Of a stretch of DNA of 64,000 bases, positions 26,956 through 32,274 are shown in pieces. A program made the translations under genes and the position numbers. This stretch comes from Candidatus Thalassarchaeum sp. (GTDB lineage Archaea; Thermoplasmatota; Poseidoniia; Poseidoniales; Thalassarchaeaceae), in contig JAKURL010000007.1 in NCBI GenBank assembly GCA_022449345.1, positions 23,163 to 87,162 of the forward strand, given 5' to 3'. The notes under the pieces were generated by a model. It was not told the origin of the DNA, made no database searches, and saw only the letters and a list, made by a program, of their open reading frames with translations. The first letter of the stretch is position 1. The number at the start of each line of letters is the position of its first letter.

Positions 26956-27681
26956 TCATTCTGGCTTAGAACCGTCCGCGAGTCGAATGCATTTTGCTGG
27001 CACACCACCCCAAATTTCTCCGGCTGGGATATTGGTCCATTTAGGTAGTACAGCGCGGTTAGCGACGACTGCTCCAGCTCCTATTGTGCAACCTGGCTGA
27101 ACGGTAGAATTTCCTCCGATCAAGGCGTCCTCACCAATGGTTACTGGGGCCATAACCAATTCACCTCGCTCCACTAAATGAGCATTTATGATGGCATTTC
27201 CTCCAATTACGGCACCATCCCCCAAAACAACCGATCCAGCATCATTTAGGTGGGGTGTGTTAATCTGGCAACCAGAACCTATCTTTGCACCTGCCATACG
27301 GTAGTAAATCGTCCCGATGAATGAAGGAACTAGAACAGGGAGGAATAGAATCGCCACTCTGTGGAAAATCATAGACCAAGCCCATTGGATTGTAATGAAT
27401 GACCGTAGAGGGTAGCGGCCGGGTTCAAGACGAGGTCGAAACAATCCTCCGAGCAATCCGGAGATCATTACAAGGGTGATACCCCAGACTACACAAGCCA
27501 ACCCAAGTGCGATTCCTGTTCCGAGTAACTCCATCCAATATTCCTGCTCAACGAGGTAATCCCTTGACTCAAGGAATAGCCAAACGCCCGGCACTGAGGC
27601 AATTCCCACAACTATACCAAGGAATGGAATGACGAGAAATGTGAGAAAATTCTGAACTATCTCAAACGACTTCAGGTGCAC
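26956..27681 (-). CDS. Membrane-bound hexapeptide-repeat (LbH) acyltransferase-like protein
   Basis: N-terminal TM helices; GAKIGSGCQI, VTIGEDALIG, TIGAGAVV and WGGVPAK repeats. Confidence 0.8.
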   Translation of the reverse strand: MHLKSFEIVQNFLTFLVIPFLGIVVGIASVPGVWLFLESRDYLVEQEYWMELLGTGIALGLACVVWGITLVMISGLLGGLFRPRLEPGRYPLRSFITIQWAWSMIFHRVAILFLPVLVPSFIGTIYYRMAGAKIGSGCQINTPHLNDAGSVVLGDGAVIGGNAIINAHLVERGELVMAPVTIGEDALIGGNSTVQPGCTIGAGAVVANRAVLPKWTNIPAGEIWGGVPAKCIRLADGSKPE

Positions 27682-27780
27682 ACCCCGCCTTCGGTTCCGG
27701 TCTTTCAGTCATCAATTTTGGCCTGTCGGCAGAATCAAGACAGGTCTGACTGCCGAAATGATATGGCTCAGGCCTGTGGT

Positions 27781-28896
27781 ATGTTGGGTGACGGTTCACC
27801 AGCGGTGAAAATTCACCATCTGGTCAAGGCGCCAGAAAACACCGCAGAGTCAATCGCCCGTCGCGAATCTTGGGACGCTCAGAAGCCTGCAACCGTCTAC
27901 GTCACCCCCGAGCGAATGCCTGACGGCACACCCTGTCAAGCTGTGACGGTAATCCTCCGAACTCGTGGGTGTGCTTGGTGGTGGAAATCTGGTTGTACAT
28001 TTTGTGGCTACTTCAACGACGTGCGCGATGATGTAACTGCGAACGACCTATTCGCTCAGTGGCAGGAAGCAAAAAGACAGACTAATGATTTTGAAGGTTG
28101 TTCGATGGTTAAGGTGTATACCTCTGGTACATTCTTTGAAGATCAGGAGAATCCAGTCGAATGGCAACAACACATTCTCACCGAGACACACAAAATGGGA
28201 CTCCACCTAGTAGTCGAGGCTCAAGCCCACATGTGTAAGCCAGAGAAATTGGAATTCCTCGCAAAACACCATCCGGGTTGTACAGTAGCGATTGGGCTTG
28301 AGGCATACGACGACGCAGTACTACAATTTCACGTCAATAAGGGATTCTCGACGAAGACTTGGCGAAAGGCCGTAGATGATCTTCGAAGCAACGGTCTTCG
28401 AGTCAAAACTTACCTAATTTTCAAACCGCCATTCATGAGTGAGGGCGACGCATTGAACCACACATCGAAGTGGCTGGTCGACGTCGCTCCACTTTCCGAT
28501 GAGGTCTCGATAAATCCGATGAACATACAGAATCGTACAATCGTCGACCGGCTGTTTAGGAATAGAGAGTATCGACCTCCTTGGCTTTGGTCGCTCGTCG
28601 AGATGGTTCAACGCACCCACGACGAAACAGCTGAGCACGATGCTCGAATCATCGTCCATCCTACCGCTGGAGGAAAGATTCGCGGCGCCCACAATTGCGG
28701 TTTCTGCGACAAACACGTGGTCGCCGCCATAGAGCGATACTCAGTTTCTCGAAACCTAGCTGAGTTCAAAGGATTAGAATGCGAATGTAAGGCGGTTTGG
28801 AGCTCGGAAGTATCCTCTGACTCGTCTCTCCCAACGCCTCTTGGCACCGGCCGAGATCGTCGAGGCAACCGCGTTGATTTGATGCGCGCTCCTTGA
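27781..28896 (+). CDS. Radical SAM protein, archaeosine biosynthesis RaSEA (TIGR01210) family
   Basis: TVILRTRGCAWWWKSGCTFCGY, KVYTSGTFF, KPPFMSE, YRPPWLWS and RGAHNCG; start uncertain (27781 or 27805). Confidence 0.88.
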   Translation: MLGDGSPAVKIHHLVKAPENTAESIARRESWDAQKPATVYVTPERMPDGTPCQAVTVILRTRGCAWWWKSGCTFCGYFNDVRDDVTANDLFAQWQEAKRQTNDFEGCSMVKVYTSGTFFEDQENPVEWQQHILTETHKMGLHLVVEAQAHMCKPEKLEFLAKHHPGCTVAIGLEAYDDAVLQFHVNKGFSTKTWRKAVDDLRSNGLRVKTYLIFKPPFMSEGDALNHTSKWLVDVAPLSDEVSINPMNIQNRTIVDRLFRNREYRPPWLWSLVEMVQRTHDETAEHDARIIVHPTAGGKIRGAHNCGFCDKHVVAAIERYSVSRNLAEFKGLECECKAVWSSEVSSDSSLPTPLGTGRDRRGNRVDLMRAP

Positions 28897-28986
28897 TGTG
28901 AGGGACTACGTCCCTCGCCTAACGCTTAAGGGCGAATCTTCTGTGGTCCACCTATCCACGAAGTGTTGTGGACAAGTGGTGTCTCA

Positions 28987-29244
28987 ATGACGAATGATGA
29001 CGGATTCCTACAAGGCGAGAACGAACCTGGTGCTTCGAAGGTAGTGTTAGTTGGGGCATTAGTCTCCGCGCTAATCTTCATGGTTGTCTACAGCATCCTC
29101 TATCCTGGACAGGATTATCCGGTTTTATCTGATTTCGAGACCTTCGGTTCTTTGACCGGCGGAATTTGGTTCTTCATCCTTGGAGCGGTCTTGGGAATGT
29201 TCTCAATTATCGCCACGATGATTACGGAGGCAACTCGCGAGTGA
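28987..29244 (+). CDS. Small 2-TM membrane protein
   Basis: Two hydrophobic helices; its stop codon overlaps the SD of the next gene. Confidence 0.7.
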   Translation: MTNDDGFLQGENEPGASKVVLVGALVSALIFMVVYSILYPGQDYPVLSDFETFGSLTGGIWFFILGAVLGMFSIIATMITEATRE

Positions 29245-29254
29245 GGTGGTTGTG

Positions 29255-30919
29255 ATGTCTGAGATTTTCACTACTCTAGCCGTCTTTTGGCTCTGTGCTT
29301 TCGTATTCTATGTTCTAGTCCACAGGGGGCTCTGGATCTTCTCAGACGTAGCACGAACCATGGGGATGTTCATGCTTGAGAAGGCCCTTGGTCCGGGTAT
29401 AGATTTGGTCGAGGGCCGTACAGGTTCTGCGGCACGAGCATGGATAATGCAGTCAGCCCTGTGGTTGATGATTGGTGGGCTGTTTACCTTCGAGGGTATG
29501 TGGCTTGCACATGAGCCGACCGCTCTGCATTCACTCAGCGCTTGGGGATACGACCCTACCGCTGATACCCTAGCCGCCACAGGTAAGGCGGCCACAGCCT
29601 TTGGTGGAATAACCATGGCACTGGTCGGCTGTGGCTTGCATATATTGCCTAATTTATTGGGCACAAGTTTGGCCAGTGAGAGAAATGGGGCATTGGTCTC
29701 TTTCCTCTATTCCGGAGGGGTATTCGTTACTTTGGTTGGCTCACATGATCCATTAATTCTAGGAGTCAAGGTTATGGTAGTAGGAACAGGAATCCACGTT
29801 CTGGCAATGACCGCCGTCGTCATAAATCAATTACTCACCGTAGCCAGCCGAGTCGGCTCGATTCCTATGCCAGCATGGCTAATTTTGTTAGGATTGATGG
29901 CTGAATCATTCAATCTAATCGCTGGCATTTCTACCGGTGCTATCAACGATGGTGATGGCCAGTGGTTGATGTACAGATTACAGGGAAGCGGATTCTTCTT
30001 CCTTTCATTGGCCGGTGTTGTACTATACGCATCTAGTGTGGCCTCTGGCAATGCCCTTTGGTCTCGTACTCTAGTCGGAGCAACACTGCTCGGAGGTTTG
30101 TTCACATTGAATCCATTTGGAGCGAATCATGGAACTCTAGTTGCAGATTTGTTTGGTATCGATGCAGGCGAAATGGGTATGTCATCCAATGACACGGTCA
30201 TTGTTACCTTCCTAATGGCCCTCGCATCTGTACCGGTCATTGCCTTGTCTGCGAACACCATGCTGACCATGAGAGGTGGCAATTCTTCAGGAGCTAATCC
30301 TAGTGGTGCTGGTTTGGTTGAGATTAACTTTGGAGTAATGGCAATGATTCCAGTCTTCATCGGTTCTCTATTCGTTCAAACCGATGCAGTATCCGGAACC
30401 GATGCGATTTCAGGTCTTTCTTGGACGATTGAAGAGATGAGTCGCTGGGCGGTAATGGTGCCACTATCTTTGGGTTCAGTATTGGCTCTCTACCCTTCGA
30501 TTACCGGACGACAATTGGCATCAGCTAGCCGCGCTCGAACTGCCTTTTGGCTAATGTCAGGAGCGGTTTTACTCGGATTGATGCTCAACTTAACTTCCAG
30601 CGCTATCGACATGGCTCTATTAGACGCTGGTGTCGAAGATCCATCGAGCCTATCCCACGAACTTGCTGTAGCGGGCTCGGTAATCTTCTACTTCGCCGTA
30701 GTTGCCATGATTCTCCACTGTCTCAACATGGTTAGCGGTCTGTTCCGCGGAGATATTATCGGAGAGGGTACTGAAGTTGCTTCGAGTATTGAGGCCGACA
30801 CCTACAATCTGGCTTCGGCCACCACAGTCTCACGCATTCTTACCTCTGGTGCAGGTATGGATACAGTGGTAGTGCCAGTAGGCGAATCAGACGAGAAAGG
30901 CTCAGCAACTGATTTGTAA
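29255..30919 (+). CDS. Heme-copper oxidase subunit I (CcoN)-like polytopic membrane protein lacking most metal-ligand histidines
   Basis: About 12 TM; segments LHILPNLLGTSLASER, QWLMYRLQGSGFFFL...ALWSRTL and WTIEEMS...LYPSITGRQLAS...AFWL follow the CcoN pattern, with His positions substituted. Confidence 0.55.
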   Translation: MSEIFTTLAVFWLCAFVFYVLVHRGLWIFSDVARTMGMFMLEKALGPGIDLVEGRTGSAARAWIMQSALWLMIGGLFTFEGMWLAHEPTALHSLSAWGYDPTADTLAATGKAATAFGGITMALVGCGLHILPNLLGTSLASERNGALVSFLYSGGVFVTLVGSHDPLILGVKVMVVGTGIHVLAMTAVVINQLLTVASRVGSIPMPAWLILLGLMAESFNLIAGISTGAINDGDGQWLMYRLQGSGFFFLSLAGVVLYASSVASGNALWSRTLVGATLLGGLFTLNPFGANHGTLVADLFGIDAGEMGMSSNDTVIVTFLMALASVPVIALSANTMLTMRGGNSSGANPSGAGLVEINFGVMAMIPVFIGSLFVQTDAVSGTDAISGLSWTIEEMSRWAVMVPLSLGSVLALYPSITGRQLASASRARTAFWLMSGAVLLGLMLNLTSSAIDMALLDAGVEDPSSLSHELAVAGSVIFYFAVVAMILHCLNMVSGLFRGDIIGEGTEVASSIEADTYNLASATTVSRILTSGAGMDTVVVPVGESDEKGSATDL

Positions 30920-30987
30920 GATAATCAGGGCAAAGCCGCCACCGTCAAGTTGAGGGCTAACCACCCTAGTTGAGTGAAGGGGATGAC

Positions 30988-32274
30988 ATGAGGATAGGGC
31001 TGGTCGGCAAGCCGAATGTCGGTAAATCAACGACATTCTCGGCCCTAACTCAAACACCCGTAGATATAGCAAATTATCCGTTTACAACTATTGAGCCAAA
31101 TGTAGGTGTAGCATGGATCCCTCTTCGGCAACCGTGTGCCTGCTCGGCACTAAGGGCAAAGCGTGAAGCGGCTGGAAGGCTTGAACCAACTACTGATGAT
31201 GATCCTCGAAAGGGTAGCATTTGTTCTCCAAATACTGGATCTTGTGTCGAACACAACCGATTGATTCCTGTAACCATGGTGGATGTTGCGGGATTGGTTC
31301 CAGGCGCTCACGAGGGACGCGGTCGAGGTAACCAATTCCTTTCCGACCTCGCACGATGTGATGCTCTAATCCAAGTCGTAGACGTATCAGGTTCAACCGA
31401 CCTTGAGGGTAATCCGGTTGGAGAAGGGGGTTCCAATCCCGTCGAGGAGCATGAGTTCCTTCTCGGAGAGTTGGATGCTTGGATTCGTGGAATAATCGAA
31501 TCAAGTTGGCAACGAGGAGCCCGTCGTGTTCAATCAGAGGGTGACAAGGCCCTTCTTACGTATGTCTTGGACCAATTGAGTGGTATCGGCGCAGACGAAA
31601 CCCACGTCTCCGTTGGCCTTGCTGCAGTTTCCTCTGAACATCCAGATGCTGGAGTTCCTTGGTCCTGGGGTATCGAGGAGTTGTCGACTCTTGCGAAGAC
31701 GGTCAGAGCAGCTCTGTTCCCCATTTGCGTTGCTGCGAATAAGGCCGATCGAGCAGAGGATGGATCTTGGAAGCAACTCGCAGATTTAGTCACTTCATCT
31801 GGAGGAATACTAGTACCTACCAGTGCAGAGGCCGAACTTGCCCTCAGTAGAGCAAGTGCAGCAGGATTGATTCAACATAGGCCCGGCAGAGAGGGATTCA
31901 CCATCACAGAAGATGGCGAGTCTAAGTTGTCAGAAGCCCAGAGAACGGCTCTTTCCTCAATTGACAAATCACTCTCAAGGTGGTCAGGAGGAGGTCTTGT
32001 TGGTTTGGTCGGAGACATCGTTTTCGATAGACTCGACAGAAGGGTTGCCTATCCAGTACAGGATGAAACTCATTGGGTTGATGGCGAGGGCAATGTCCTA
32101 CCTGATGCTATTCTCATCCCCGAAGAGACCACTGCGAAGGGCTTGGCCTACGCAGTCCACACAGACCTCGGGGACGGATTCATCCGAGCTACAGATGCAC
32201 GTAGTGGACGTGTAATTGGGGCTGATCACGAAGTCCAGAACGGCGACGTGATTCGAATTCACGCCAAGTCGTGA
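30988..32274 (+). CDS. ychF: Obg-family ATPase/GTPase YchF (Ola1), archaeal type
   Basis: GKPNVGKST, ANYPFTTIEPN, DVAGLVPGAHEGRGRGNQFL, ANKAD and C-terminal TGS (VHTDLG). Confidence 0.93.
   Translation: MRIGLVGKPNVGKSTTFSALTQTPVDIANYPFTTIEPNVGVAWIPLRQPCACSALRAKREAAGRLEPTTDDDPRKGSICSPNTGSCVEHNRLIPVTMVDVAGLVPGAHEGRGRGNQFLSDLARCDALIQVVDVSGSTDLEGNPVGEGGSNPVEEHEFLLGELDAWIRGIIESSWQRGARRVQSEGDKALLTYVLDQLSGIGADETHVSVGLAAVSSEHPDAGVPWSWGIEELSTLAKTVRAALFPICVAANKADRAEDGSWKQLADLVTSSGGILVPTSAEAELALSRASAAGLIQHRPGREGFTITEDGESKLSEAQRTALSSIDKSLSRWSGGGLVGLVGDIVFDRLDRRVAYPVQDETHWVDGEGNVLPDAILIPEETTAKGLAYAVHTDLGDGFIRATDARSGRVIGADHEVQNGDVIRIHAKS

Follow-up and report, generated by a model that had tools for sequence, protein, structure and literature searches.

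The window analysed here, a stretch of 64,000 nucleotides from Candidatus Thalassarchaeum sp. (contig JAKURL010000007.1, positions 23,163 to 87,162), carries a pair of adjoining genes. The second and larger of these (29255..30919, + strand; 554 aa) specifies a membrane protein that has the fold of the respiratory subunits CcoN and NorB and is without conserved heme or copper ligands. The evidence shows or strongly supports two points: that the large gene descended from a C-family-like (CcoN/NorB-type) subunit I and lost its heme and CuB ligand residues, and that the Poseidoniales keep it almost universally as a core gene, intact and under selection, which follows a small gene for a two-helix membrane protein. 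Its product is neither the oxidase of the cell nor the trace of a pseudogene, and very probably represents a cofactor-less relic of a heme-copper oxidase (HCO) that is kept under selection. The source of the window is a member of the Thalassarchaeaceae (Marine Group IIb, MGIIb), to which MGIIa is the sister family within the Poseidoniales (Marine Group II, MGII). Marine Group II archaea belong to the most abundant microorganisms in surface seawater, and the metal-binding histidines are treated as the defining constant in the heme-copper oxidase superfamily.

Fold and descent of the large protein

Searches of the PDB by sequence, with the large protein and with the family profile, returned nothing at E ≤ 10, and no Pfam or NCBIfam family was matched at E ≤ 1, hence neither PF00115, TIGR00780 nor NnrS; the link to oxidases came from the fold search only. 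An AlphaFold2 model based upon 24 family sequences (pLDDT 74, pTM 0.79) displays 13 predicted helices, that is, the 12 canonical ones preceded by an extra N-terminal helix. The count of about 12 transmembrane segments in an earlier note, made from the letters of this DNA, is thus correct for the canonical helices and one short for the model as a whole. The top Foldseek match was CcoN [3mk7_A, E 3.7e-9, TM 0.62/0.73], with NorB of cNOR at 6.3e-8. In total 92 structures matched at E ≤ 0.001 and, among the matches listed, all are heme-copper oxidases, NO reductases (NOR) or respiratory supercomplexes.

A structure search independent of Foldseek (VIA), run over 48,161 chains, gave the same two proteins: CcoN [3mk7_A, Z 35.1, rmsd 3.4 Å, 420/466 residues aligned] and NorB of cNOR [Z 33.0, 410 residues]. 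Eight further HCO or NOR chains scored Z 22.9–27.0, the best unrelated chain reached Z 9.4, and no NnrS chain occurs in the structure-match lists. Since CcoN and NorB stand at 35.1 and 33.0 against 9.4 for an unrelated chain the fold claim holds, and the nearest branch is C-family/NOR. The VIA alignment pairs residues 52–504 of the model with residues 6–465 of 3mk7_A, and hhalign covers residues 48–461; on these ranges we place the twelve-helix heme-copper-oxidase core at residues 58–498 (29426..30748, +).

Descent was also apparent at the level of profiles. When the family was compared by hhalign with four CcoN-like proteins which keep all six His, the two aligned with 98.6% probability over 378 columns [E 1.4e-15], in agreement with the alignment to CcoN subunit I that had been proposed by hand. 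Against 1.84 billion representative sequences the family profile found 127 proteins at E ≤ 0.001. Among the 20 of these scanned with Pfam, seven full-length matches (458–530 aa, E 1.4e-6 to 5.3e-4) are PF00115 proteins whose best NCBIfam model is ccoN or a fused cbb3 subunit I/II, and four of the seven retain all six His. The MGIIa relative P0132 itself clears the Pfam COX1 cut-off (43.2 vs 34.8 bits) and scores 31 bits on the CcoN equivalog TIGR00780, for which the cut-off is 583. That the large protein belongs, by its modelled fold and by descent, to the heme-copper oxidase superfamily, with CcoN and NorB as nearest members, is strongly supported.

Loss of the heme and copper ligands

Ligand positions in the large protein were assigned with hhalign. 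G110 (codon 29582..29584, +) takes the place of the helix II His which ligates low-spin heme b in CcoN, R241 (29975..29977, +) that of the helix VI CuB His, and N291-H292 (30125..30130, +) that of the His-His pair which helix VII contributes to the CuB site; only the second of these two residues is His. Helix X (residues 386–417; 30410..30505, +) carries ligands of both hemes in CcoN and has no His in the large protein. Hhalign leaves a gap here, with no residue-by-residue alignment; this is harmless because the helix contains no His, and for the same reason no shift of register would restore its two heme ligands. The strings on which the manual alignment had been based, TLAATGKAATAFG (residues 105–117), QWLMYRLQGSGFFFL (residues 236–250), PFGANHG (residues 287–293) and WTIEEMS (residues 390–396), were all located in the protein. 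The claim that five of the six canonical His ligands are lost was borne out: they are those at G110, R241 and N291 and the two of helix X. The protein possesses nine His in all (23, 86, 92, 129, 164, 181, 292, 468 and 488). The six-His hallmark of a functional O2 or NO reductase is absent, and we infer from the sequence that the protein would be unable to reduce either gas.

Across the family, residues were counted per column over 141 full-length members, among which a single clade predominates, and invariance was judged from an order-wide alignment of 32 diverse sequences. Column 110 is Gly in 111/141, and in this column, as in column 291, His is outside the six commonest residues. Column 241 contains His in 105, Arg in 20, Lys in 6 and Gln in 4, and column 292 His in 61, Asp in 39 and Asn in 16. 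The resulting pattern is a mosaic which differs by clade. Nor are the ligands supplied in another register, helix X being free of His and no His being invariant across the 32 sequences. We read these columns as the loss of all three heme ligands throughout the family, the CuB site appearing to persist only as a variable relic.

Might the protein nevertheless be a redox enzyme which binds its cofactors through non-canonical ligands, either His 86, 92, 129 and 488 or, in some clades, the pair H241/H292? Positions 86, 92, 129 and 488 are His in 114–126 of the 141 members (241 in 105 and 292 in 61), and non-His axial ligands (Met, Lys) occur in some NOR families according to Murali et al. (bioRxiv 10.1101/2021.10.15.464467). 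Against this, not one of these His is invariant order-wide; most MGIIa-type sequences have Asp in place of H92, 129 and 488 vary, and the window protein itself has Arg at 241. H129 and H488 fall at the aromatic positions Y82 and Y449 of the CcoN-like protein P0227 (H488 by ungapped count), and look structural. There is also no cytochrome c or cupredoxin partner nearby and no CcoO in the genome. We regard such an enzyme as very improbable. We also considered, and set aside, a bis-His site hidden between H129 and H488: MGIIa conserves neither residue, and each appears to stand in for an aromatic residue of P0227.

Selection, distribution and expression

Both genes evolve under purifying selection. 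With relatives at 64–87% amino-acid identity, dN/dS was 0.05–0.12 for the large gene and 0.07–0.16 for the small one; the neighbouring RaSEA and YchF genes gave 0.03–0.05. The small gene gave dS values of 0.4–1.1 and the other genes values of ca. 1 or higher, some saturated pairs having been dropped. Relaxed selection, which the earlier note had named as a finding that would speak against it, was thus not observed for the orthologues of either gene (dN/dS 0.05–0.16).

A class-wide search of 401 genomes with a profile built from MGIIb sequences matched the large gene in 321. By family the matches amount to 158/165 in that of the window, 161/189 in MGIIa and 1/1 in a third family, and with the same MGIIb-built profile none was found in 45 genomes from two families of the class that lie outside the order. 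When five high-quality MGIIa genomes from which the gene had seemed to be missing were searched again with an MGIIa query, four proved to hold a full-length copy, which makes 161/189 an underestimate; the fifth (90% complete) gave only EF-hand matches. The gene is single-copy in most genomes searched. Of the 150 listed matches 149 retain an open frame; the remaining one is a split copy, with a TAG, in genome G355.

Weak support for expression came from RNA libraries. Five short contigs (208–429 nt, with at most 16 differences each) from four RNA runs cover parts of both genes. One of the five, at 28817–29024 (213 nt, depth 36.5, 1 difference), joins the 3' end of RaSEA to the initial 38 nt of the small gene across a spacer of 90 nt. 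This bridging contig could represent read-through or an extended 5' leader, or else come from DNA present in the library. Since libraries can hold DNA and the uncovered parts are uninformative, we take these contigs as a weak hint of expression. A scan for promoters and terminators of bacterial type is not meaningful for an archaeon and was not used.

The loss of catalytic residues is the only feature that would favour a decaying pseudogene or an artefact of annotation. The open frame in 149/150, the dN/dS of 0.05–0.12 at dS of about 1 or above, and a gene order conserved across the order refute this explanation, to which we assign next to no probability; the near-identical contigs in four RNA libraries, which may be DNA, point the same way.

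The oxidase of the same genome

A single PF00115 gene [E 6.2e-145], whose 785-aa product is an A-type COX1, occurs in the genome from which the window derives, on a different contig. It lies at L001:1240–3597 (–) on contig C12, and its product possesses an N-terminal extension of ca. 230 aa with one hydrophobic helix and a CNCH sequence that resembles, by eye, the heme c site CxxCH. By eye also, it is flanked by a COX2-like ORF with a CxxxCxxxH copper-site motif and by a COX3-like ORF. FixO/CcoO (PF02433) was not matched in this 93.8%-complete genome in a search to which control genomes responded; CcoP was not searched for separately. The window's family has COX1 in 150/165 genomes, MGIIa in 178/189 and the two families outside the order in 33/45.

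These data bear upon the suggestion that the large protein is an assembly factor or cofactor chaperone, a mimic of subunit I which assists the insertion of heme or copper into the A-type oxidase. The presence of an A-type COX1 with adjoining COX2- and COX3-like ORFs, the co-occurrence of COX1 and the relic across MGII, and the partial set of CuB-site His in many members would all be in keeping with such a function. The large gene, however, lies away from the oxidase genes (contigs C12 and C29), and the heme ligands that one would expect in a heme-handling mimic are precisely those universally lost. Outside the order, moreover, COX1 occurs in 33/45 genomes and the relic in 0/45; that these families run COX1 without the large protein argues against a general role in oxidase assembly. 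We judge it improbable that the protein acts in this manner.

Conserved segments and a proposed role

Fourteen residues of the large protein are invariant order-wide: G25, F39, W63, W70, F79, W83, A90, W208, S270, N334, P414, Y479, G532 and D536. The polar residues N191, T195, N334 and T338 of the membrane, together with W70, W208, E142 and P414, occupy positions which are also invariant in the CcoN-like set, and the loop motifs LASE, GNxLWS and TGRxL align with CcoN-like counterparts. Because these residues and motifs are shared with CcoN-like proteins they are best understood as inherited determinants of the fold and not as a new active site. What is specific to the MGII family lies elsewhere. 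In the N-terminal segment G25 and F39 are invariant, in the tail G532 and D536, and in helices I and XII F79, W83 and Y479; a further family-specific set, K43, A44, G57, R526 and T537, is at least 90% conserved.

Two additions to the core harbour most of these residues. The N-terminal extension (residues 1–57; 29255..29425, +) is absent from CcoN, the VIA match beginning at residue 52, and consists of a hydrophobic helix (residues 2–23) followed by an amphipathic segment, predicted to be cytoplasmic (pLDDT 40–48); it bears the motif FMLEKALGPG. The C-terminal tail (residues 499–554; 30749..30916, +), likewise predicted to be cytoplasmic, displays the order-wide motif Y-x-L-x(2-3)-G-x-T-T-I/V-R-x-L-L-x-x-G-x-G-x-D-T. 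A Pfam scan of a 46-aa tail gave no family, and a search of the genome revealed no second copy of the tail. Eight Lys or Arg residues lie in predicted inner loops and one in outer loops, a bias which agrees with the orientation of CcoN and so places both additions in the cytoplasm. Some members of Thalassarchaeum (P0025, P0100 and P0120; columns 571–611 of alignment A1) possess about 40 further C-terminal residues with the sequence KLYVRYKK-GKWTWRPADD; this extra tail, tested at 43 aa, also matched no Pfam family.

The view that we favour, tentatively, is that the large protein is a non-redox membrane scaffold which may present conserved cytoplasmic segments. The anchor would be the body of twelve helices, probably joined by the small protein, and the FMLEKALGPG segment and the TTIR-LL-G-G-DT tail would be the working surfaces for binding or regulation; we read them as such since order-wide, family-specific conservation falls mostly on the predicted cytoplasmic side. 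In MGIIa the tail is lengthened by an EF-hand pair and, in some members, by a SAP/HeH domain. The earlier note had proposed that a heme-copper scaffold was repurposed for a non-respiratory role. The fold match, the loss of His and the purifying selection uphold the repurposing; any specific role is put forward here as inference.

The EF-hand domains deserve closer description. MGIIa relatives carry an EF-hand pair after the tail, and some of them a SAP (SAP/HeH) domain as well; in 20 Pfam-scanned relatives EF-hand was above its own cut-off in five and SAP in six, and canonical EF-hand loops can be seen by eye in MGIIa ORFs. In the MGIIa genome G006 the EF-hand cassette of the tail shares 62% identity [E 2e-38], across 101 residues, with an EF-hand pair in AtpI, the A-type ATP-synthase stator subunit I, which matches PF01496 together with EF-hand families and has the cassette inserted in its hinge; the two genes compared are L108:2480–4888 (+) and L109:1706–3682 (+). 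The two cassettes are direct paralogues. In each of five MGIIa genomes an ORF of 789–847 aa was the best match besides the gene itself, or the sole strong match, at 56–62% identity, its identity as AtpI having been established for G006 only. The AtpI of the window genome (G000:C2:28501–30636) matches only residues 3–316 and 411–799 of MGIIa AtpI and so has no EF-hand insert.

The shared cassette hints that the large protein belongs to regulated energy-converting membrane machinery. Carried further, the oxidase frame and its small partner might form a new kind of regulatory or conducting module acting, in a physical or a functional sense, with the A-type ATP synthase, in MGIIa through the near-identical cytoplasmic EF-hand cassettes. 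We think this quite unlikely; if true, it would provide the first descendant of a heme-copper oxidase with a non-redox role in bioenergetic control, and that in abundant marine archaea.

A different use of the frame would be as a channel or transporter, the former heme pockets or proton channels having been turned to the passage of protons, ions or some small hydrophobic molecule; the small protein would then be an accessory subunit. Heme-copper oxidases do contain proton and gas channels. It is the whole twelve-helix core, not the tails alone, that is under purifying selection, and most order-wide sequences retain, by eye, D377, which lies where helix IX ends on the outer side; an EF-hand cassette held in common with the stator subunit of a proton-conducting ATP synthase would also fit a role related to ions. 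Set against these points, no charged residue is invariant within the helices order-wide, no transporter family was matched in Pfam or NCBIfam, and the invariant polar residues of the membrane are the same as in CcoN-like proteins, which suggests that they maintain the fold and do not line a new path of conduction. A channel or transporter seems to us unlikely.

Several observations also weigh against the scaffold that we prefer and against its extension to the ATP synthase. The conserved cytoplasmic segments, on which the proposal turns, are modelled at low confidence (pLDDT 38–52). The large protein of the window has neither EF-hand nor SAP domain. EF-hand modules are found on several other MGIIa proteins, and the sharing with AtpI may reflect a promiscuous cassette; the weaker EF-hand matches on those proteins indicate that the cassette is mobile, which makes the AtpI link only suggestive. 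Finally, two of the three CuB His positions are often His (105/141 and 61/141), and part of the family may have a residual metal site. The probability that we do not give to any of the explanations named in this paper goes to something else.

The small partner and the gene neighbourhood

The small partner gene (28987..29244, +; 85 aa) extends from an ATG at 28987 to a TGA at 29242–29244 and is separated by 10 nt from the ATG of the large gene. The Shine-Dalgarno-like sequence GAGGTGG (29241..29247, +) overlaps the small-gene stop, lies 7 nt ahead of the large-gene ATG, and may serve as its ribosome-binding site. A mechanical list of ORFs began both genes at upstream GTG codons, yielding products of 93 aa and 557 aa (the latter from GTG 29246); homologues use ATGs in both, that of the large gene being ATG 29255. 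The full-length ORF described in the earlier note is thus correct, and its length of 555 aa is to be read as 554.

Hydropathy analysis of the small protein suggests two hydrophobic helices (ca. residues 15–40 and 56–82) and acidic termini. In 23 order-wide sequences, four of them from MGIIa, its invariant residues are G10, E13, P14, S17, P45, G59-I60-W61, G66 and E81. It possesses no Pfam or NCBIfam family above cut-off. Co-folding of the large and small proteins scored 0.01 in both runs, which gives no verdict either way.

When one genome per species was scanned, 148 stretches proved to encode a relative; locus counts were taken from the 80 that were kept. The small gene, located by tblastn, is directly upstream of the large one in 78/80 loci, and the two others begin less than 20 nt from the large gene and hence hold no upstream DNA. 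The coupling to an upstream two-helix gene that had been noticed in the window, with its 10-nt gap, is therefore a conserved pairing. Upstream of the pair lies the gene for RaSEA, the archaeosine radical-SAM protein (27676..28896, +) [TIGR01210, 9.2e-86, above cut-off], which has this position in 77/80 loci. Downstream, 50 nt past the large-gene stop, is that for a YchF-related GTPase (30970..32274, +) [NF007171, 2.8e-131], present in 79/80. With these flanks the window offers no cytochrome, ccoO or ccoP gene in the vicinity, as had been stated.

In MGIIa the large gene is preceded by RaSEA and the small gene in 5/5 loci, the small gene being 4–12 nt upstream of it or abutting. Four of these have downstream DNA, and in each a GTPase-type ORF follows by eye; in the fifth (L095) the contig ends inside the large gene and there is no downstream DNA. 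The order RaSEA-small-large-YchF is thus kept in MGIIb and MGIIa. Around YchF in four loci of a family outside the order (f4), tblastn did not find the RaSEA, small or large genes.

Past YchF, on the opposite strand, there are ORFs which by eye resemble ribosomal proteins. On the other side, divergent from RaSEA, lies an ORF (window 26956–27681, –) for a hexapeptide-repeat acyltransferase with a hydrophobic N-terminal half. Its listed start overlaps that of RaSEA by 6 nt, and it is kept there in 64/80 loci. The top NCBIfam match is to a Pls/PosA-type synthetase terminal domain [3.9e-22], far below cut-off.

Comparison with known systems

CcoN/FixN (3mk7_A) is the closest known protein. The two have in common the twelve-helix fold, homology at the profile level and the predicted inside/outside orientation. 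WSER, GNPLYSH and TGRKMYS of CcoN correspond to LASE(R), GNxLWSR and TGRxLxS, and there are shared invariant N, T, W and P positions. Unlike CcoN, the MGII family conserves none of the six His, and the window protein matches neither TIGR00780 nor PF00115. It has in addition the extra N-terminal helix and cytoplasmic segment, the conserved tail and the gene for a two-helix partner. The family is archaeal and restricted to one order, and in the window genome there is no CcoO.

NorB (4xyd_A, 3o0r_B) is nearly equal to CcoN as a fold match. It retains every His ligand and has Glu residues as further ligands of FeB, as described by Murali et al. (bioRxiv 10.1101/2021.10.15.464467), whereas in the MGII protein the ligands are absent and no NorC-like cytochrome gene adjoins. 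The same source covers gNOR and other proposed HCO families, divergent members of the superfamily with altered active sites, and reports the replacement of a single metal-binding His as a first. The MGII family differs from all of these in that it conserves none of the six ligand positions.

Meheust et al. 2022 (PMC9258230) describe fam02696, a 12-transmembrane family centred on the Halobacteria with distant homology to HCO subunit I. In Table S3 of that study it is recorded in 0% of 137 Poseidoniales genomes, from which we conclude that the MGII family is a different one. Poseidoniales-specific calcium-binding families are also mentioned there. The earlier note had called the gene pair a candidate undescribed system, and in keeping with this no description of the MGII family was found in the full-text literature, titles and abstracts covered by our search, in so far as these sources were available; an unannotated entry in the supplement of Meheust et al. 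is possible.

The loss of cofactors in this fold is not unique to MGII. Three CcoN-like proteins from outside MGII (P0235, P0237 and P0239; 458–485 aa) also lack all six His (alignment A2). They score 113–149 bits with PF00115 and, unlike the MGII family, they are without N- or C-terminal additions; a metagenome scan for relatives of P0237 found none. For one of the three the source gives the label "cbb3-type cytochrome oxidase subunit 1", and this calls for caution in annotation: a metabolic reconstruction would take relatives which pass the Pfam COX1 model or carry a cbb3 label for high-affinity oxidases. Beside these systems, the MGII gene pair constitutes a clear and testable example of the frame of a respiratory enzyme reused for another purpose.

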